From positions 4,980,001 through 5,012,000 of the forward strand of contig CP126532.1 of NCBI GenBank assembly GCA_030167145.1: a stretch of 32,000 bases of DNA. Reading direction: 5' to 3'. The notes beneath the pieces were generated by a model. That model was not told the origin of the DNA. It did not search any database and saw only the letters and a list, made by a program, of their open reading frames with translations. This DNA is from Ktedonobacterales bacterium. Its GTDB lineage: Bacteria > Chloroflexota > Ktedonobacteria > Ktedonobacterales > JADMIN01. This document shows, in pieces, positions 1,238-29,921 of this stretch (position 1 is the first letter of the stretch; each line of letters begins with the position of its first letter). Position numbers and translations under genes: made by a program.

Positions 1238-1253
1238 CGTGAGACCTCCTTCG

Positions 1254-1301
1254 TCGCTCTATCGCTCTATCGCTCTATCGCTCTCTCGCCCTATCGCACG
1301 A
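1254..1301. repeat. 8-bp tandem repeat TCGCTCTA, 3 perfect plus 3 degenerate copies
   Basis: Read directly: tcgctcta x3, then tcgctctc, tcgcccta, tcgcacga. It starts 17 nt upstream of the MarR-GNAT start codon, so it lies in that gene's leader/promoter. Confidence 0.9.
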
Positions 1302-1402
1302 TCGATCAGGTCGGCGCGACGCACCTCGCCACGCATTCTCTGACTATAGTCAGACAATGCGCTCTGCGACAAGGGCACATCCCGCATGCCTGGTGCTGCC
1401 CG

Positions 1403-1444
1403 CACATGCCGTATGCACATGCCGTATGCACATGCCGTATGCAC
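1403..1444. repeat. 13-bp tandem repeat CACATGCCGTATG x3 plus a partial copy
   Basis: Perfect copies at 1403-1415, 1416-1428 and 1429-1441, followed by a partial 'cac'. Confidence 0.95.
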
Positions 1445-1485
1445 CGCAGAACAGCAGCTGGGCCACCCCTGCGCTGGTGAAGACG

Positions 1486-1518
1486 CACCACCAGCACACC
1501 ACCAGCACACCACCAGCA
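1486..1518. repeat. 11-bp tandem repeat CACCACCAGCA x3
   Basis: Perfect copies at 1486-1496, 1497-1507 and 1508-1518. Confidence 0.95.
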
Positions 1519-1558
1519 GATACCGTGCGTCTCCTAACGCTGCGGCCAGTTCTCCTCA

Positions 1559-1597
1559 CACCCCTTGCTCGCACCCCTTGCTCGCACCCCTTGCTCA
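1559..1597. repeat. 13-bp tandem repeat CACCCCTTGCTCG x3
   Basis: Copies at 1559-1571, 1572-1584 and 1585-1597; the last base of the third copy is a instead of g. Confidence 0.95.
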
Positions 1598-1618
1598 CAT
1601 CATTCCCGATGCGCCCGG

Positions 1619-1684
1619 CCCCACATCAGCCCCACATCAGCCCCACATCAGCCCCACATCAGCCCCACATCAGCCCCACATCAG
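1619..1684. repeat. 11-bp tandem repeat CCCCACATCAG x6 (G4-motif on the - strand)
   Basis: Six perfect copies. The complement reads (CTGATGTGGGG)6, i.e. GGGG tracts separated by 7-nt loops. Confidence 0.97.
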
Positions 1685-1728
1685 CCACGCCCGCTCCACC
1701 CGCCCCAGCACCTCCACCACCCGCGCCC

Positions 1729-2121
1729 TCAGTCATAGACCGTATCCAGCACCCACACCTCCCGCGCCGCATCCTCATACACGTCGCAAATCAACCCCTC
1801 CACCCCACCTCCGTACCCCTCGCACCGCACCCGCCAGTACGTCCGCTCGCTCGCACCCCAGCTCGCCCCACCGAGCCGTCGTCCTTGCCTGTGTCCTTGT
1901 CCTGGTCCTGGCTGCGGTTGTTCCCCTGGCAACAGCGCATCCGAAAGTGGCGGCAATTCCTCCCACCACAGATCCCGCAGCCGCCACGTGCTCAGCACCT
2001 CCGCCACCCTGTACTCCCGCCCACGCCACACCAGCCGCTCCGGCCTCATCTCGCCCGCAGCAGCGCCATTTGCCGTCGCGCTCACCGTCACCGCAATCGT
2101 CTGTAAATACACATGCCCCAT
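1729..2121 (-). CDS. Small conserved protein resembling the C-terminal module of ImuB / DUF6504-type proteins
   Basis: 130-aa ORF. The motif pattern RPERLVWRGREYRVAEVLSTWRLRDLWWEE ... RTYWRVRCEG ... VYEDAAREVWVLDTVYD matches my recollection of the 'P-x-R-x-x-W-x-G-R ... WW ... R-x-Y-W-R-V ... W-x-L ... D' signature. The family name is from memory and is not a search result. Confidence 0.6.
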   Translation of the reverse strand: MGHVYLQTIAVTVSATANGAAAGEMRPERLVWRGREYRVAEVLSTWRLRDLWWEELPPLSDALLPGEQPQPGPGQGHRQGRRLGGASWGASERTYWRVRCEGYGGGVEGLICDVYEDAAREVWVLDTVYD

Positions 2122-2679: not shown

Positions 2680-5649
2680 GTGCATCATCTAGAGCGACAG
2701 GCTGCTAGAAAGTGCAGGCAAACCATGGCGATGCGGGAGTCGGCGGCAGACGGGCGGACGTCACGGCAAGTAAACGCGAGCAGCGATGGAATGAGCGACG
2801 CGAGCAGCCGTGGTCAGCAGGGCCAGTATACGGGTGTCGTGCTGATTCACGGCCTCGGTCCAATCCGGCGCAATGGCATGCTGGAGCAATCCCTGAACGC
2901 CCTGAGCTACTGGTTCAACCATACGGCCCAACTTGCCGTGCGCCCTGAGGGTCCAGGGCGTATCTGGCTCGCTCCTGAACTCACTGACGACCCTGATCCC
3001 GATCAGCCCGCCTCACGGGCAAGCGTCGAACTGGTCGCGCCTGACTCGCCCGATTCCCTGCCGAGCGGCGCTGCTGGCGTGCGGCTGGAGTTCCGCGAGG
3101 TGTGGTGGGCAGAGTCGTTTGGCCTGCCCGACATCGGCGCCACCATCGCCTGGGCGCGGCTTCAGTGGCGCGAGCAGGCCGCACACCTGCTGATTCCCAT
3201 CGGCAAGCTCGTCGGACCCTCGAAGACCGCCGCGCGCACGCCTGCACGCCAGACTCCCCAGGCGCTTACCTATCGCCCGGCACATGACACCACCGGACGC
3301 GACAGTCACGGCGCCACCAGAGCTGCCTCCCGATCCGCCACCGGAGCCGCGGCACAGCCTGCTCCCCCCAACCAAATGGGCCGGCCGATGCGTGCGGCGC
3401 TACGCACGCTGCTCTGGTTGTACGACCTCTACCAATACCTCTGGAAAGGCGTACAATGGCTGTTCCTCACACCCGTCATCACCCTGCTGTTGATCGTGAT
3501 GGGCATCGTGCGCGTGCTGGCGGTTCTGCCCTTCTTGCGCCCGGCGATCATCGCTACCTTCCAAGCAATCACCAACAACATCATGCTGCACTGGGTCTCC
3601 GAGATCAAGGTCTACCTGACCGACTACACCCGCGCCTCGGCCATCCGACAACGCTTCGCACGCGAAGTGGAAGAACTCCTGCGCGACCTACACTGTGACC
3701 GCGTCGTCGTGATCGCCGAGTCAGGGGGCACCTACATCGCCTATGAAGGGTTGACGACCCTCCTGGCGAAACCGGACCTGCCACTCGACGACCAGGGCCA
3801 GCCCAAGCCCGTAACCTTCGTCAGCATCGCCACCGCGCTGCGTCGCATCTGGCTGCTCGCCGCGGCCGATCCCCATCGGGTCCATGGCGTCCTGCCTCAA
3901 CATGTCAAATGGATGCACTTCTGGGCACGCTACGACCCAGTCGCAGCCGGTCCACTCACCACGGACTCGCTTCCCCCGATCACCACCTGGGACGATCCGA
4001 CCGACCCGAACCCCTATGATCGGATCCGCACTTCACTAGCGCACTGCGAGAACGTAGCCGTCGTCAACACCGACAGCACCTTCACTGACCACGTGAGCTA
4101 CTGGGATAACCTGGAGCAGGTCGTAGGGCCGATTGCGTATGAGTTGGTGGCAGGCCATCCCGCCTTGGAGCAGGTCGTGCAGGACCACCTCGCCTCGCGA
4201 GATGACGTACTGCTGCGCCGCTGGAGCGTGGCCTGGCGCTATACACTGGCCTTCGCAGCCAGCGTCGCCGCTGGACTCGGTCTCCTGGTATGGGCAGTTC
4301 AGCACCCAGCATTTGGCGACACCCTGACGAGCCTCTTGCGGCGCGTCGACTGGGGTGGCCTCGTCGGCTCCGTGTGCGCACCCTGCAAGGCAGTGGTCGG
4401 CAATCCTGGTCCACCACTGCCGCCAAACCCCACCGTCGAACAGTTCGGCTTTTACGCCCGCGCGCAAGCCGTAACCTATCTGTTCACACAGTACGTGACG
4501 ATCCAGGCTCTCGTTGTCGGAGCCATCGCCGTGGCGGTGATGGCATTGACGCATGTGCTGGTTGGGCGGCTGGCGGCGAAGCAGACCTTCGTTGCGTTTC
4601 CCGACTTCCATCCCCCTGCCATGCTGCGCCTGGGCGGGCTGTTTGCAACCTCCGCCATCGGGGTGGGACTGATATTTCTCGCGTCCCTCATTTTCAGCAG
4701 ATACGTGCATCAGCGCGTGAGTCTCGCAGCCCTTCCCAATGACCCGCTGGTGTTCGCCTACATCTGGGCACTGGGGCTCGGTGAGCTTATCTATACCGTA
4801 TCCTTTGTCGCGACGCTAGTCGTCACCTTCCAGCAGCGACAATGGGGTTGGCTCGTCGGCGTGCTTCTCAGCCTCACCCTCCTCACCACCTTCGACCCGT
4901 TCTATCGCACTGCCCTGCTCGCCGTCGCCGTGGTCGGCTGTCTCGTCTGCCTGACCCAATCGCCCCGACCCTCTGGCGCCAGCGGAAAGATCATCCTCGC
5001 AGCCCTGGCGCTCATGTCCGCCAATGCGGGCATTGGCGTGACGCTGGCCGATTTCAAGGTCCTGAGTACGCCGCTGCTCGGTGCGGGCGTCTTCGTGGAG
5101 TACCTCCTGCCCCCGCTGATCTACGCCCTCTGGTCAGGCAGGTTAGCCAGCGCACACGTCAGCGACCATCTGATCGGTGTCAGCATCTGGCGGCGCACGG
5201 TTCTCGGCCTGGCGCCAGTGTACCTGGGTCTCGCCACCCTGCTTGCGGTGCCATACATCATCAATCGGCAGCTCTACACCTGGCTGTACAGCCACACGCA
5301 GTTCAGCATCTTGTCATTGCACGACTTCCTGGGCGCCGGAGCATCGTCCACCCTCACCCTACGAGCGTTCGGAGTGACGCTCGCCGTGTTCCTTGGCGCC
5401 ACTATGCTGCTGCTCAGCATGGCCGATGCGCTGCGGCAGCGGCGGTGGGCCTGGCTGCTGGGCATTCCGCTCTTGTTCGCCGGGCTGGCCATCGGATTCG
5501 ATACGCTCGCGCAGTTGGGAGTCAAGTCCACCGTACCTGAGGCAGGCCTCGTGCTCTCGTTCGCGCTCGCTGCGGCGGCCCTGATGTATGCGCTCTGGGC
5601 CGGGCCGACGAAATGGCGAGGTGCGCCCAAACCCATCAAGCCCGTATAG
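2680..5649 (+). CDS. Large polytopic membrane protein with an N-terminal alpha/beta-hydrolase-like domain
   Basis: 989-aa ORF; the start is uncertain (GTG 2680, ATG 2725 or ATG 2791). It has VVLIHGLG (oxyanion HG), VVVIAESGGTYIAYEG (AxSxG nucleophile elbow, Ser codon 3721-3723), WARYDPVA and FTDHVSYW as candidate Asp/His, and more than 12 hydrophobic helices from about residue 520 to the C-terminus. Confidence 0.8.
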   Translation: MHHLERQAARKCRQTMAMRESAADGRTSRQVNASSDGMSDASSRGQQGQYTGVVLIHGLGPIRRNGMLEQSLNALSYWFNHTAQLAVRPEGPGRIWLAPELTDDPDPDQPASRASVELVAPDSPDSLPSGAAGVRLEFREVWWAESFGLPDIGATIAWARLQWREQAAHLLIPIGKLVGPSKTAARTPARQTPQALTYRPAHDTTGRDSHGATRAASRSATGAAAQPAPPNQMGRPMRAALRTLLWLYDLYQYLWKGVQWLFLTPVITLLLIVMGIVRVLAVLPFLRPAIIATFQAITNNIMLHWVSEIKVYLTDYTRASAIRQRFAREVEELLRDLHCDRVVVIAESGGTYIAYEGLTTLLAKPDLPLDDQGQPKPVTFVSIATALRRIWLLAAADPHRVHGVLPQHVKWMHFWARYDPVAAGPLTTDSLPPITTWDDPTDPNPYDRIRTSLAHCENVAVVNTDSTFTDHVSYWDNLEQVVGPIAYELVAGHPALEQVVQDHLASRDDVLLRRWSVAWRYTLAFAASVAAGLGLLVWAVQHPAFGDTLTSLLRRVDWGGLVGSVCAPCKAVVGNPGPPLPPNPTVEQFGFYARAQAVTYLFTQYVTIQALVVGAIAVAVMALTHVLVGRLAAKQTFVAFPDFHPPAMLRLGGLFATSAIGVGLIFLASLIFSRYVHQRVSLAALPNDPLVFAYIWALGLGELIYTVSFVATLVVTFQQRQWGWLVGVLLSLTLLTTFDPFYRTALLAVAVVGCLVCLTQSPRPSGASGKIILAALALMSANAGIGVTLADFKVLSTPLLGAGVFVEYLLPPLIYALWSGRLASAHVSDHLIGVSIWRRTVLGLAPVYLGLATLLAVPYIINRQLYTWLYSHTQFSILSLHDFLGAGASSTLTLRAFGVTLAVFLGATMLLLSMADALRQRRWAWLLGIPLLFAGLAIGFDTLAQLGVKSTVPEAGLVLSFALAAAALMYALWAGPTKWRGAPKPIKPV

Positions 5650-5837
5650 CAGCCCGTATAGCAGCATAGGTACAGATCAGCGTGCTACAGCCGCAAGCGA
5701 CGACGTTCCCAGGCTACCCGTCCCTACGAAACGCCGCCGCTTGCCCTGCTTGCCCTTGCGCTAAAACACACTCCCCTGCTCCGCCGCCTCCCCTCTCTCC
5801 CCCGTCCCTGCCCCCCGTGTCGCCCACCGCAACTCCT

Positions 5838-5881
5838 CTCCGTCATCTCTCCGTCATCTCTCCGTCATCTCTCCGTCATCT
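5838..5881. repeat. 11-bp tandem repeat CTCCGTCATCT x4
   Basis: Perfect copies at 5838-5848, 5849-5859, 5860-5870 and 5871-5881. Confidence 0.95.
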
Positions 5882-5970
5882 CCTGCCGCCCCCAAGCGTG
5901 AGCACGCCCTCATCCTACAGCAGCAGCTGTGGTAGGATTGAGCGGACGCTGAGACCTGTAGAGCCCAAAG

Positions 5971-5990
5971 TGGGGGAACGTGGGGGAACG
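5971..5990. repeat. 10-bp tandem duplication TGGGGGAACG x2
   Basis: Copies at 5971-5980 and 5981-5990, ending 2 nt before the methyltransferase GTG start. The duplicated unit contains the purine-rich SD-like GGGGGAA. Confidence 0.9.
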
Positions 5991-5992
5991 GA

Positions 5993-6655: not shown

Positions 6656-6773
6656 GGCTGGAGATGCACGGTCACCGCTGCATGTCTATCACCACTGCAT
6701 GTATCGACCGTCTCACCAGCTCGTAGCCTGTACGCATAGCCTGAACTGTAGGTCTACCGGCCGCACAGGTCGA

Positions 6774-6851
6774 GCGCCATCTCCTGCGCCATCTCCTGCG
6801 CCATCTCCTGCGCGACCTCTGCCGCCGCCATCGCCGCCTTCTCCGCCTTCT
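6774..6851. repeat. 12-bp tandem repeat GCGCCATCTCCT x3 (plus a degenerate 4th), followed by the 9-bp repeat CCGCCTTCT x2
   Basis: Perfect 12-mers at 6774-6785, 6786-6797 and 6798-6809; CCGCCTTCT at 6834-6842 and 6843-6851. Confidence 0.92.
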
Positions 6852-7115
6852 CGTCGCTCTCCGCCGGGTCCGCAGGCCTCCTGCATCTGCCCCCTATCGT
6901 CGCGCATCGTCTCCCCCCTCTAGTCTCTTGTTGCTGTCATGCTGGTGCAAGGGGGAGCCATAAGGCTCCCCCCACCTCGCCCGAATTCCTCACCCTCGCG
7001 CACACGCGCAGCGCGCCAAACGTGATGCATTCTGACGTGTGCTCGCTTTTCAGTCGCACCCGACCCCGCTCATTTCCTTAGAGCAACTTGCGAGAAGCAA
7101 TGGCAGGCATGGGTT

Positions 7116-7506
7116 ATGCGGAGCTCCCAGGTATGCGGAGCTCCCAGGTATGCGGAGCTCCCAGGTATGCGGAGCTCCCAGGTATGCGGAGCTCCCAGGT
7201 ATGCGGAGCTCCCAGGTATGCGGAGCTCCCAGGTATGCGGAGCTCCCAGGTATGCGGAGCTCCCAGGTATGCGGAGCTCCCAGGTATGCGGAGCTCCCAG
7301 GTATGCGGAGCTCCCAGGTATGCGGAGCTCCCAGGTATGCGGAGCTCCCAGGTATGCGGAGCTCCCAGGTATGCGGAGCTCCCAGGTATGCGGAGCTCCC
7401 AGGTATGCGGAGCTCCCAGGTATGCGGAGCTCCCAGGTATGCGGAGCTCCCAGGTATGCGGAGCTCCCAGGTATGCGGAGCTCCCAGGTATGCGGAGCTC
7501 CCAGGT
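7116..7506. repeat. 17-bp tandem repeat ATGCGGAGCTCCCAGGT x23, all copies identical
   Basis: 391 bp equals 23 x 17 exactly, and I can see no mismatch. A 24th partial copy (ATGCG, 7507-7511) forms the first 5 nt of the transposase gene. Each unit contains the 8-bp palindrome GGAGCTCC and an ATG. There are no stop codons in any of the six frames. Confidence 0.98.
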
Positions 7507-8449
7507 ATGCGTGCCTATTCGACCGACCTGAAAGAACGCCTGGTGCGCGCGGTGGCAGCGGGTCAGCCCATGCGAGAAGCCGCGCGCCGCTTTGGAGTGG
7601 CCGTGAATACGGTGAAACGCGCCGTGGTGCAACAGCGCGAGACGGGTTCCCTGGAGCGCAAACCGATTTCCGGCTGCCCGCGCCGCATTGGCCCGGAGCA
7701 GGAAGCCAGTTTGCGCGCGCGGCTGGAAGCCGCGCCCGACGCGACGGTGCTGGAGCACTGTGCCTGGTGGGAGGAGCAGACCGGCCAGGTGTTGAGCGAG
7801 GCCACCATGTGGCGAGCCATGCGCCGTCTGGGCTGGACACATAAAAAAAGCAGTGGCAGCCAGCGAGCGCAACGAGGAGGCGCGGGCAGCTTGGTGCGCG
7901 GCGGTCGTCCGGTTCGACCCCCAGCAGTTCGTCTTTGTCGACGAGAGCAGTACCCACACCTCCTTGACCCACCTCTATGGGTGGGCGCCCCACGACCAGC
8001 GCGCCAGGGGAGCGGTCCCGCGCGAGCACCGCACGAACACGACCTTGGTGGCCGCGCTCACCCCCGACGGGCTGCACGAACCCTGGATGATTGAGGGGGC
8101 GATGAATAGCGAAACCTGCCACTGGTATATCCGGGAGCAGTTGGGGCCAACACTGCGACCCGGGCAGGTGGTGGTGCTGGATAATTTGAGCGTCCATAAG
8201 GCGGCCAGCATCCGGCAGGCGCTGGCCGCCCGTGGCTGCGACCTGCTCTTCTTGCCGCCCTACTCCCCCGACTTCACCCCTATCGAGCAAGCGTTCTCCA
8301 AACTCAAGGCGATCCTGCGCGGGCTGGGCGCTCGCACCCGCGCGGCGTTAGAGCAGGCGGTAGGAGTGGCGGTGGATGCGATCACCCCCCAGGATGCCTC
8401 CGCCTGGTTCGCTCATGCTGGCTACTCCCTCCCTGCTCCACCAACTTGA
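7507..8449 (+). CDS. IS630-family transposase, N-terminal HTH part and C-terminal DDE part in two frames joined at an A7 run (7843-7849)
   Basis: Frame 1 from ATG 7507 reads MRAYSTDLKERLVRAVAAGQPMREAARRFGVAVNTVKR...RLGWTHKK (HTH domains). Frame +1 from 7850 reads AVAASERNEEARAAW...FVFVDESS...VVVLDNLSVHK...PPYSPDFTPIEQAFSKLK up to the TGA at 8447-8449. Removing one A from CAT AAA AAA AGC fuses them in frame. Confidence 0.85.
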
Positions 8450-27159: not shown

Positions 27160-28445
27160 ACAAACGTACAGGCAAACGCGCGGCCATAACGCGAAACGAC
27201 TCCTCCTCTCACATCGCAGAAGCAGCACGCAGCGTTCGTAGGGGTGGGCAGCGTGCGCCCGTCAGCGACGATGTAGGAGCGGAGCGGACTGAGAGTGTAG
27301 CAGAGGGGCCAGCAAAGGGGTCTTCGACTTCCATACGCCGCGACACCTGGTTCGGCCTTGGCATGCTGGCGCTTGGCGTCATTACGGTCTTTATCCTGTC
27401 GCATGGCGGATCCTCGTTTGGCTCATCCAATCGTAACGCCGCAATCACCCGGCCTATCGCCACTGCTACCCAGTCTGGCTCATCCGCAGCTCAGCCGCGC
27501 ATCATTGCCGCCCAGGAGCGCGTCTATTCGCTGCCGCAACCCGCCGCAGGATTGATGCAACCCGCCGTGGACGCTCAGGGCAATGTGTGGGTTGGCATGA
27601 TGCAAACCAATCAGCTTGCCCGCCTCGACTCGAAGACCGGAGCCGTCACCACCTGGACACCGCCCAATGGCAAGTTCGGCATCATGGCAACGGCGGTGGA
27701 TGCGCAGGGTCGTGTCTGGTTCACCGAGCAAAACGCGAACTACATCGGGCGCTTCGACCCCGCAACCCAGCAGTTCACCACCTACCCACTCGAGGCTGTC
27801 AACGGACATGCTTCCGCACCGCAAGATCTCATCTTTGACAAAGCGGGGATGCTCTGGTTCACCGAAATCGGCGCGACGAAAATCGGACGCCTCGACCCCA
27901 CCACTGGCGCCATCATCACCTGGGACGCTCCAAAGCCAAAATCCGCCTCGTCCGCATGGCTTTTCAGCCTCACCACTCTCCCCGATGGCTCAGTCTGGTT
28001 CGGCTATCTCGGTGGCGCGCTTGGCCGCCTTGATCCCATCACCGGTGCCACACAACTCTACGCTACGGGCGACGCCAACGCCCAACTCTACGCTATGGCT
28101 GGCGACGCGCAAGGCCGAATCTGGTTCACCGAACTGAGCCAGGGCAAGCTTGGTATGCTTGATCCCGCCACCGGCAAAGTCACGGAAATTCGGGTTCCCA
28201 CCACCACCAGCGCTCCCGCCTCCGGCCTCTACGACATCGTCACCACCCGCGATGGCTCCGTCTGGTTTGCTGATGCCTCCGCCAATGCGCTGGTGCGCTA
28301 TACTCCGCAGAACGGCCAGTTCAGCTTCTATCAACTTGCTGAGCCATCCAGCATTCCCTTCGGCCTCGCCCTCGACACCACTGGCGCTCTCTGGTTCACC
28401 GCCGATAGCAACCCCAACAACTACATCGGCGTGATCCGACCGTAA
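27132..28445 (+). CDS. Membrane-anchored seven-bladed beta-propeller protein of the Vgb (streptogramin-lyase-like) repeat family
   Basis: There are seven repeats of the type G-x-[VIL]-W-F-[TA]-E...[IL]-G-R-[LF]-D-P-x-T-G, e.g. GRVWFTEQNANYIGRFDPATQQF and GMLWFTEIGATKIGRLDPTTGAI. A single TM helix is WFGLGMLALGVITVFILS. The ATG at 27132 overlaps the ubiD end by 28 nt; the only in-frame alternative, ATG 27363, would truncate the TM helix. Confidence 0.78.
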   Translation: MGGIRNPDVDKRTGKRAAITRNDSSSHIAEAARSVRRGGQRAPVSDDVGAERTESVAEGPAKGSSTSIRRDTWFGLGMLALGVITVFILSHGGSSFGSSNRNAAITRPIATATQSGSSAAQPRIIAAQERVYSLPQPAAGLMQPAVDAQGNVWVGMMQTNQLARLDSKTGAVTTWTPPNGKFGIMATAVDAQGRVWFTEQNANYIGRFDPATQQFTTYPLEAVNGHASAPQDLIFDKAGMLWFTEIGATKIGRLDPTTGAIITWDAPKPKSASSAWLFSLTTLPDGSVWFGYLGGALGRLDPITGATQLYATGDANAQLYAMAGDAQGRIWFTELSQGKLGMLDPATGKVTEIRVPTTTSAPASGLYDIVTTRDGSVWFADASANALVRYTPQNGQFSFYQLAEPSSIPFGLALDTTGALWFTADSNPNNYIGVIRP

Positions 28446-28667
28446 TCTGCCACCACCGCAGCCGTGTAGCGCCGCCATCTCACCAGCTCGTGCCTACCTG
28501 CCCTCAGCTAATAGCCGTCTCTACTGCTCCCCGCTCCCAGTTCTCTTCTATCTTCGTGGCCCCAACTGACCGTATTCGACCGCACCACATCCCCGTATCC
28601 TCGTGCCACGCATGCTACACTATCCACAATTGCCTATCTTCCGGCGTAAGGAGCACGCCCCCCATGA

Positions 28668-29231
28668 AACATCGGCCACATCGGCCACAGGTAGGGCAGA
28701 CATTCTTGTCTGCCACAATGCGAAATTCTGCCACAACGCGAAATCGGCGGCATCGGCAACTCAAATGTTTGGCCACTTTGGCAACCCCGCTCGCTTCGGG
28801 GTTACACATGGCATTCATGCTGGGAACTCGCTTTACCACCCAGCCTACCCTTTTCGCCCAATCGGCCACTCCGGCCACTCCGGCCACTGCCACACATGTG
28901 AAATTGCGGCGAAAACGGCGAAAATTACTCCGCCATCTCCAGTCATGTCCCGTCATTCATCCCCACACCACCGCGAAAATCGGCCACATCGGCCACTACC
29001 CCTCCGCAAAATCGGCAGAATCGGCAACTCACCTTCGCGGCGAAAAGGGCGAAATCTATGCGCTGCATATTCGGCCACATCGGCCACTGCTCATCATGTG
29101 CGCGACACGAGACTGCGGCGAAAACGGCGAAAATTCTCCCTCCATCTCCACCCGTTTCCTGCCATTCGCCCCCACCCAAACGCAGGAATCGGCCACATCG
29201 GCCATTCCGGCCATTCCGGCCATTCATGGCC
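28668..29231. repeat. Composite non-coding repeat locus: 9-bp doublets/triplets (ATCGGCCAC-type) embedded in ~210-bp higher-order repeats
   Basis: ATCGGCCAC-ATCGGCCAC occurs at 28671, 28979, 29070 (first copy TTCGGCCAC) and 29188. TCCGGCCAC x2 is at 28870 and TCCGGCCAT x2 at 29206. An identical 22-mer TGCGGCGAAAACGGCGAAAATT occurs at 28905-28926 and 29114-29135 (209 bp apart). ATCGGC[GA]G[CA]ATCGGCAACTCA occurs at 28743 and 29011. Confidence 0.85.
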
Positions 29232-29244
29232 GAGATCGCTACCA

Positions 29245-29286
29245 CAAAAAGACGAGTCCACCACACGCTCTGCGGGCGGACTCGTC
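29245..29286 (-). terminator. Rho-independent terminator of the YtxH-like gene
   Basis: On the - strand GACGAGTCC-(18 nt)-GGACTCGTC is a 9-bp perfect stem (29251-29259 / 29278-29286) followed by TTTTTGTGG (complement of 29242-29250). It starts 26 nt after the stop at 29312. Confidence 0.6.
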
Positions 29287-29311
29287 CCTGGGAGGCAAAA
29301 TGTTTCAGCGC

Positions 29312-29716
29312 CTAGGCATTCGTCGAAGAACGCATCTGATCGGCGGCCCGGTCGGTCAACTGCTGCGCCTTGTCGGCAGTGGTATTTGTCGCCCGCTGTG
29401 CCTTCTCGGCGGCCGTATCCGCCGCCTGCTGAGTCTTGTCAGCGGCGCTGCTCGTTGTCTGGCGCGCCTTGCTCACCGCCGCATCGGTCGCTCGCTGCGC
29501 CTGGCTGATACCGCTATTCAGTGCCTTCCGGCCCGATTCAATAGCGTTCGAAACACTCGGCGGCAGGTTGTTCATTCGCTCCTGCGCCTTGCCCTGCCAC
29601 TCATTCAACCGCTCTTGCAGTTGCGCTCGTGTCACCTCGCCCCGCTGCGGAGCAAACAGCAAACCCAGCACCGCGCCAATCGCGGAACCCCATATGAAAG
29701 CACGAATCGTCTTCAT
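29312..29716 (-). CDS. YtxH-domain protein (general-stress-type, N-terminal anchor plus Ala/Gln/Thr-rich repeats)
   Basis: The start is chosen at MKTIRAF (ATG 29716) with an AGGAGG SD ~9 nt upstream, giving 134 aa. FIWGSAIGAVLGLLFAPQRGEVTR is the YtxH signature. The C-terminus has reiterated ADKTQQAADTAAEKAQRATNTTADKAQQLTDRAADQ. Confidence 0.8.
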   Translation of the reverse strand: MKTIRAFIWGSAIGAVLGLLFAPQRGEVTRAQLQERLNEWQGKAQERMNNLPPSVSNAIESGRKALNSGISQAQRATDAAVSKARQTTSSAADKTQQAADTAAEKAQRATNTTADKAQQLTDRAADQMRSSTNA

Positions 29717-29921
29717 CGCGTTGCCATCCTCCTGGACCTGTCTATGCACAACATCTTCAGCCAGACAAACGCCGGTGAACCATATGTTTCCCGGCGTATC
29801 CTATCGGAGCAATCTTCATGCCAGCGAAATCTATCGCCGCACGCTCTCCGCGCCGCAACATCTGACGCAACCGTGGCCGTATCCTTTCGTACTACGCTTC
29901 GGGGAAAGAGGAGGTTCTAGC

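Follow-up and report, generated by a model that had tools for sequence, protein, structure and literature searches.

Intergenic minisatellites and VNTRs are well known from bacteria, with the MIRU-VNTR loci of mycobacteria and the STRR heptamer arrays of cyanobacteria as examples. Short direct repeats also form the tandem-box architectures of the MetJ metboxes, the omega heptads and the parC repeats of ParR. Reports of SSRs with units of 6-9 nt in prokaryotes are described as rare (PMC4692102), and our literature search on tandem repeats in Ktedonobacter returned nothing relevant. Here we analyzed a repeat locus of ~830 bp (28446-29311) within a 32-kb stretch of DNA, referred to as the window, that lies at ~5.008 Mb of the 5.07-Mb contig Ga0494333_323 from a JGI metagenome. 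Judging by the closest UbiD loci, the host is an uncultured member of the Ktedonobacterales (Chloroflexota). The locus is most likely a lineage-specific spacer under no constraint that separates the 3' ends of a Vgb-like gene (+ strand) and of ytxH (- strand). We assign a probability of roughly 55% to the reading that it is a minisatellite-like spacer which was built by slippage, evolves concertedly and has no dedicated function.

In common with minisatellites, VNTRs and long-unit SSRs, the locus is non-coding and intergenic, appears lineage-specific and lacks a fixed function as far as its features suggest. It consists of short units arranged head to tail above chance expectation, and these lie outside coding sequence. 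As in VNTRs, copy number differs between related arrays, here within one and the same locus. The likeness to MIRU and STRR loci would hold only in part, since the arrays described here comprise 2-5 units, draw on a set of related 9-mer words and lie inside a 209-bp higher-order repeat. Overall, the locus is a real repeat spacer, probably functionless, and adds a further example to a kind already known.

The locus sits between two convergent genes. The gene of the Vgb lyase family on the + strand ends at 28445 and ytxH occupies 29312-29716 on the - strand; the neighboring genes encode UbiD, the Vgb-like protein, YtxH and an ABC transporter. The end of the contig is ~60 kb away. At every base of the locus the two recorded assemblies (JGI 3300045419 and Logan SRR22113990) agree, and the repeat array is therefore not an artefact of one assembly pipeline. 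The proximal part of the spacer contains the 14-mer TCTCACCAGCTCGT at 28478, which is found again at 6711. An earlier note on this DNA had listed a set of repeat elements, and all of them were found in the sequence with coordinate slips of at most 1-10 bp (Table 1). This applies to the four ATCGGCCAC doublets (28671, 28979, 29070 with T as first base, 29188) together with the runs of 3 (28861) and 5 units (29188), to the type-1 words at 28743 and 29011 and to the exact 22-mer at 28905 and 29114, 209 bp apart. Both hairpins are present as well, the first at 28695-28714 and hence one base off its previous position, and the tandem duplication proved to be 18 bp ×2 at 28709-28744. Likewise, the terminator of ytxH is real, with a hairpin at 29251-29286 and a T-run on the minus strand.

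Table 1. Features of the repeat locus in window coordinates
Feature	Position	Strand	Remarks
Proximal spacer part	28446..28655	.	directly after the Vgb-like stop codon; without 9-bp arrays and without hairpin terminator
Doublet ATCGGCCAC ×2	28671..28688	+	TRF, motif matching
Hairpin GGCAGACA-ttct-TGTCTGCC, perfect 8-bp stem	28695..28714	.	sequence, folding
18-bp tandem duplication TCTGCCACAAYGCGAAAT ×2	28709..28744	+	TRF; 94% matches
Type-1 word ATCGGCGGC-ATCGGCAAC-TCA	28743..28763	+	motif matching
Degenerate doublet TTTGGCCAC-TTTGGCAAC	28768..28785	+	added in this analysis
Hairpin AACCCCG-n7-CGGGGTT	28783..28803	.	sequence, folding
3-unit run ATCGGCCAC-TCCGGCCAC-TCCGGCCAC	28861..28887	+	opens higher-order copy 1 (28861-29069, 209 bp)
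Type-2 22-mer TGCGGCGAAAACGGCGAAAATT (CGGCGAAAA ×2), copy 1	28905..28926	+	
Doublet ATCGGCCAC ×2	28979..28996	+	TRF, motif matching
Type-1 word ATCGGCAGA-ATCGGCAAC-TCA, copy 2	29011..29031	+	
Degenerate type-2 word CGCGGCGAAAAGGGCGAAATCT, third copy	29036..29057	+	
Doublet TTCGGCCAC-ATCGGCCAC (first base T)	29070..29087	+	opens higher-order copy 2
Type-2 22-mer, copy 2	29114..29135	+	identical to copy 1, 209 bp downstream
5-unit run ATCGGCCAC-ATCGGCCAT-TCCGGCCAT-TCCGGCCAT-TCATGGCC	29188..29231	+	partial third higher-order copy
Intrinsic terminator of ytxH	29251..29286	-	12-bp stem, then T-run on the minus strand; bounds the repeat locus

The nesting of the repeats that had been described before is borne out by tandem arrays, by motif excess and by autocorrelation. 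In the locus TRF reported seven arrays with a 9-bp period, plus a single one with a period of 18 bp. The motif ATCGGCNNNATCGGC, allowing at most one mismatch, matched six times within the locus, always on the + strand, and once more in the rest of the window, compared with an expectation of 0.48 ± 0.64 matches for the whole 32 kb; 0 of 100 shuffles reached 7. Over positions 28656-29235 the base autocorrelation has a baseline with a mean of 0.269 and an sd of 0.03, from which it rises to 0.413 (+4.8 sd) at lag 9 and to 0.420 (+5.0 sd) at lag 209, with lesser peaks at lags 327, 218, 302 and 268. The higher-order repeat is composed of 118 + 91 = 209 bp and runs through ~2.2 copies within ~0.6 kb. 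Its copies are 79% identical when 28900-28995 is compared with 29109-29204, and the edges of the 118-, 91- and 209-bp blocks fall at doublets. There are 11 doublets and runs in total, separated by irregular gaps of 72, 25, 93, 44, 74, 32, 25, 34, 44 and 74 bp. All of them point in the same direction on one strand, an observation that speaks against slippage.

With its nested periods of 9 and 209 bp, the closest likeness between neighbors and a reticulate pattern of similarity, the locus resembles the concertedly evolving higher-order repeats of satellite DNA, although it reaches far fewer copies over a much shorter distance, belongs to a bacterial host and shows nothing centromere-like. Two other repeat systems were considered and rejected. 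In a CRISPR array the repeats measure 23-50 bp, whereas here they are 18 bp long, irregularly spaced and separated by spacers that are themselves repeated, and there is no cas gene among the called genes. The template and variable repeats of a DGR do not fit either, as the copies do not differ specifically at adenines and no reverse transcriptase is encoded nearby.

Several features bear on the origin of the repeats. Matching arrays differ in their number of units, with 3 at 28861 vs 2 at 29070 and 2 at 28979 vs 5 at 29188. These differences, together with the perfect arrays of 8-17-bp units that are numerous in other spacers of the window, indicate that slippage is active in this genome, and they cast doubt on the earlier view that the pattern reflects more than random slippage. 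The lags of 209, 327, 218, 302 and 268 are reticulate and thus cannot be explained by a single duplication. Furthermore, units are more alike within one array than between arrays. Taken together, this likeness within arrays, the unequal unit numbers, the block edges at doublets and the reticulate lags suggest slippage combined with misalignment between words. The starting material could have been a family of CGGC-containing words, mainly ATCGGCCAC and CGGCGAAAA, of which slippage during replication, or a related process acting on microhomology, would have repeatedly doubled or tripled 9-bp units and, in one case, an 18-bp unit. Misalignment or unequal exchange between such words may then have duplicated larger blocks and yielded the repeat of 118 + 91 = 209 bp. 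Ongoing slippage and exchange, that is, concerted evolution, would keep the words alike and let the intervening DNA drift. We infer both the mechanism of slippage and unequal exchange and the lack of a dedicated function from these patterns. At most, a passive role is conceivable, in which the C-rich + strand would form the untranslated tail or termination zone of the Vgb-like transcript.

The contrast between conserved words and semi-conserved spacers, to which the earlier note had drawn attention, is backed statistically. Between the higher-order copies 54 of 56 positions match within the words vs 44 of 68 in the remainder (Fisher p = 1e-5, or 0.0015 when each tandem array counts once). Either constraint on the words or concerted evolution could explain this higher conservation equally well.

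The locus resembles the other long spacers of this genome in composition and repeat habit. Perfect arrays with units of 8, 10, 11, 12, 13 and 17 bp are present in the spacers 1238-1728, 2122-2790, 5650-5992 and 6656-7511, among them GCCCCACATCA ×6, CCGCATCTGA ×5, CTCTCCGTCAT ×4 and, as the largest, a 17-mer ×23. The locus and the other repeat-laden spacers have in common a strong excess of C on the + strand, with a GC skew of -0.285 and of -0.20 to -0.40, respectively, compared with -0.06 to -0.10 in ordinary short spacers of the window. At third codon positions the skew of the same strand amounts to -0.27 for genes on the + strand and to -0.33 for those on the - strand. Gene orientation has no bearing on it, which marks it as mutational. 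Since the skew of the locus equals that of synonymous sites, it fits weakly constrained DNA. Similar arrays were absent from the sampled relatives L005, L208 and L210, so that the habit ascribed to this genome rests on one genome and on ~50 kb of it.

The nearest sampled relatives are distant, with ~80% nucleotide identity to this genome in UbiD and Vgb proteins that are 57-62% identical at the amino-acid level. The gene order TPR-Glrx-UbiD-Vgb is kept in the relatives' loci L005, L006 and L208/L209. Downstream of Vgb, L208 carries a hydrolase gene after a gap of 46 bp, L005 an ECF sigma factor and a hydrolase, and L006 another gene, and neither ytxH nor the repeat locus follows Vgb in these relatives. 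Because other genes come directly after Vgb there, the locus is situated at a synteny break. None of the nearest relatives sampled has the locus, which thus, judging from these sequences, appears to be lineage-specific. No word of the locus was found again elsewhere in 50.7 kb of this genome, and the 12-mers common to the locus and the rest of these 50.7 kb do not exceed chance level.

Given that conservation is higher in the words than in the intervening DNA, an array of binding sites has to be weighed against slippage. The doublets could be recognition sites of a sequence-specific DNA-binding protein and serve in titration, in partition, as an insulator or as an operator array in the style of MetJ or omega. 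Selection would then preserve the words and leave the spacers to drift, and such selection would account for the difference in conservation between the higher-order copies. We regard this as unlikely. Like iterons and tandem-box operators, the locus consists of short direct repeats in one orientation, its 11 same-strand doublets and runs hold 2-5 contiguous units per site, and the motif is strongly over-represented locally. However, it differs from these systems in lacking a cognate rep, par or regulator gene, a promoter and an AT-rich region, in its irregular spacing of 25-93 bp and in its chromosomal site between two gene ends. In particular, the locus lies downstream of both of its neighbors and there is consequently no promoter there to control, which together with the lack of an adjacent regulator tells against the operator array that had been suggested. 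The restriction of the words to this one place within the 50.7 kb, the absence of the locus from the nearest relatives and the unequal copy numbers of corresponding arrays argue in the same direction. A related proposal, in which ATCGGCCAC-type doublets would be putative sites for a DNA- or RNA-binding protein of this lineage in a decoy or organizing array of 11 sites, seems more doubtful still.

We also considered that the locus might act as RNA, be it as tandem sRNAs with the anti-Shine-Dalgarno-like sequence CUCCCUCCAUCUCCA, as a sponge or as a C-rich 3' UTR or Rho-loading region of the Vgb-like mRNA, and we see in this a slim chance. Tandem sRNA families such as the CcsR or 'cuckoo' RNAs and Qrr are comparable in that their repeated modules measure ~100-200 bp, are C-rich and could pair with Shine-Dalgarno sequences. 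The terminator scan found no intrinsic terminator 3' of the Vgb-like gene, which makes read-through from its stop codon into the locus plausible. The + strand is rich in C and poor in G (C 0.375, G 0.209), the C-rich tails of the type-2 modules are predicted to be unpaired, and on the minus strand both copies of the type-2 module would fold into a G-U-rich hairpin of 13 bp. Still, the richness in C equals the strand-wide skew at synonymous sites and needs no functional explanation. For the same reason the composition, which does fit a Rho-dependent terminator (rut), is non-specific. The 13-bp hairpin shows no compensatory changes and is missing from the third type-2 copy. Folding z-scores of -2.1 to -2.5 are weak and alike on both strands, as repeat-containing DNA would give.

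The modules also differ from tandem sRNA genes, as which the earlier note had tentatively read them, in that they have neither promoter nor terminator of their own, match no Rfam family and do not fold strongly. Rfam gave no match at the gathering threshold for the window and nothing relevant for the locus even at E up to 10; a single match with E = 3.3 falls in the coding sequence of Vgb. The promoter scan, which addressed promoters of the sigma-70 type only, detected none. Inside the repeat array the terminator scan picked up a single terminator-like site, a weak match to the consensus on the minus strand at 28673-28687, so that the modules are not each equipped with a terminator. A scan for tRNA and tmRNA found none. 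A CsrA sponge was rejected as a further candidate, since a hand count of ~16 GGA motifs on the minus strand equals the number predicted from composition.

The locus is non-coding. A present or recent protein-coding role, either for a repeat-rich protein or as a decayed pseudogene at a rearrangement site, is very improbable and already largely refuted, in agreement with the earlier judgement that no credible ORF is present. Two + strand frames do remain open through the entire locus (28490-29920 and 28603-29508), AAGGAG precedes an ATG at 28665 by 10 nt, and the Logan gene caller predicted a product of 298 aa where JGI called none. Yet the GC content of the locus ORFs is flat over the codon positions GC1/GC2/GC3, with 0.62/0.54/0.60, 0.61/0.62/0.57 and 0.57/0.54/0.57 vs ~0.65/0.48/0.75 in real genes of the window. 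The long + strand ORFs moreover traverse all of ytxH in antisense, and the doublets are spread over all three reading frames. A Pfam search of the locus ORFs gave no match, and the translated locus matched nothing among 5.8 billion proteins except its own spurious Logan gene call. Likewise, tblastn in all frames found no match in 200 fetched loci that included the downstream genes of the relatives. Stop codons on the + strand are scarce, with 8 observed vs 14.1 ± 2.8 expected for the whole locus and 1 vs 7.6 ± 2.2 in the interval 28700-29311 that was picked post hoc. This scarcity is mostly explained by dinucleotide composition and repetition; it is, in addition, an observation against slippage in its own right. 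The Logan call serves as a warning that gene callers place spurious ORFs of 300 aa on DNA of this type.

That the modules are fragments of an IS or MITE, or members of a dispersed repeat family, is hardly tenable. IS630-like transposases are encoded at other places of the window and immediately before its start, and the synteny break would be compatible with a mobile element. The exact IS630 transposase protein is on record at this site only. The combination of terminal inverted repeats and target-site duplication that marks a MITE or IS was not found at the locus, where the sole inverted repeat of at least 12 bp is the terminator of ytxH. The words have no further copy within 50.7 kb of the genome and shared 12-mers are at chance level, as set out above. 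A distant blastn search of 72,556 plasmids returned no match to the locus, and the 22-mer is absent from the viral contigs scanned. In metagenomes, at least 120 matches to the 18-mer doublet each cover only 21-22 nt. The matches listed belong to unrelated satellites of 9-bp units or fall in coding sequence by chance, for example L153 and L181, and do not include the source contig.

Least probable of all is an iteron-like replication origin or DnaA-box cluster, because, despite a near-perfect DnaA box CTATCCACA at 28620, a 9-mer unit of the same length as a DnaA box and the position ~60 kb from the end of the 5.07-Mb contig, only 2 sites of the locus come within 2 mismatches of TTATCCACA (no enrichment), GC never drops below 0.45 over 40 nt and leaves no AT-rich element for unwinding, the cumulative GC skew declines steadily across the 32 kb without a turning point, no dnaA, dnaN, rep or par gene lies nearby, and the units of 9 bp at spacings of 25-93 bp differ from the regular repeats of ~17-22 bp that characterize iterons.

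In summary, the earlier interpretation of the locus as a whole is partly supported: its repeat elements and their nesting were recovered, and no support was found for the iteron, operator and sRNA identities proposed for them. As analyzed here, the significance of the locus is small, as it adds one more lineage-specific repeat spacer without sign of function. Should the words bind a protein, they would constitute an unusual chromosomal array outside any promoter. If one-strand arrays of 8-17-bp units hold genome-wide, they would point to a system of replication or repair that is unusually prone to slippage in this organism and could provide useful markers for strain typing.

Gene order is shared between the window and its nearest sampled relatives (L005, L006 and L208) along the TPR-DUF6788-Glrx-UbiD-Vgb series and stops precisely at the Vgb stop codon (28445/28446). 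Beyond Vgb, the relatives continue into a BD-FAE-type alpha/beta hydrolase; the window genome continues into the repeat locus, the non-coding spacer of nested 9-bp repeats, followed by ytxH and a MacB-type ABC transporter. The gene ytxH carries coding repeats of its own (Table), which are consistent with the weak LEA_4/apolipoprotein-like Pfam matches of its product.

Within the repeat locus, the + strand of a segment picked after seeing the data (28700-29311, 612 nt) holds a single stop trinucleotide over all + frames, compared with 7.6 +/- 2.2 in dinucleotide shuffles. Because stops are so scarce on this strand, two frames stay open across the locus, and the spurious 298-aa gene call of the Logan assembly is a consequence of this scarcity.

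Repeats of 9 bp also occur in other contigs. In a distant relative (L210), Vgb is followed by a gene for a CsrA-like protein whose C-terminus is an (NGA)n tail coded by the 9-bp repeat GCCATTCGC (x6.9). The metagenome contig L153 (Ga0302125_10068835, 1187 bp) is a 9-bp satellite from end to end with units including GGCATATTG, GGCCATATC and GGCCACATC, and it has the word ATCGGCCAC in common with the repeat locus. Over its 1187 bp, no flanking similarity to the repeat locus was found. The presence of ATCGGCCAC in L153 is a matter of chance or convergence.

Inside the window, the 14-mer TCTCACCAGCTCGT occurs at both 28478-28491 and 6711-6724 (about 0.3 such matches expected by chance). The copies follow two + strand genes, 33 and 56 bp after the respective stop codons, and both stand where a repeat-laden spacer begins.

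Table. Repeat features and associated genes
Feature	Sequence	Position	Strand
DUF6504 gene	window	1729-2121	-
952-aa protein, no Pfam domain	window	2791-5649	+
Long spacers dense with perfect tandem arrays	window	1238-1728, 2122-2790, 5650-5992, 6656-7114	
Perfect 17-bp tandem array, TATGCGGAGCTCCCAGG x23.4	window	7115-7511	
IS630-like transposase, HTH ORF	window	7507-7844	
IS630-like transposase, DDE_3 ORF	window	7853-8449	
Three 33-bp (11-residue) coding repeats inside ytxH	window	29340-29443	
CsrA-like protein	L210	11374-11808	-

The 17-bp array abuts the ATG of the split IS630-like transposase with no gap: the last, incomplete repeat (TATGCG) extends over the start codon at 7507, and the gene called by JGI at 7167-7844 runs through the array. 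Another copy of the transposase lies just left of the window (11258-12381 of contig L205), so that two copies flank the DUF6504 and 952-aa protein genes, which sit amid repeat-laden spacers.

Third-codon-position GC skew on the + strand, calculated for all window genes, is strongly negative irrespective of gene orientation (-0.27 for + genes, -0.33 for - genes), a sign of strong mutational asymmetry along the whole strand. The window would lie on the lagging-strand side if the origin is close to the contig end. The + strand is also C-rich in each of the four long spacers (GC skew -0.20 to -0.40), whose arrays have 8-13-bp units in 3-6 copies apiece. In the region of these four spacers the Logan short-read assembly is fragmented into small contigs (L206, 1.6 kb; L211, 8.2 kb). 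Together, the array-packed spacers and these contig breaks suggest a habit of slippage across the genome.
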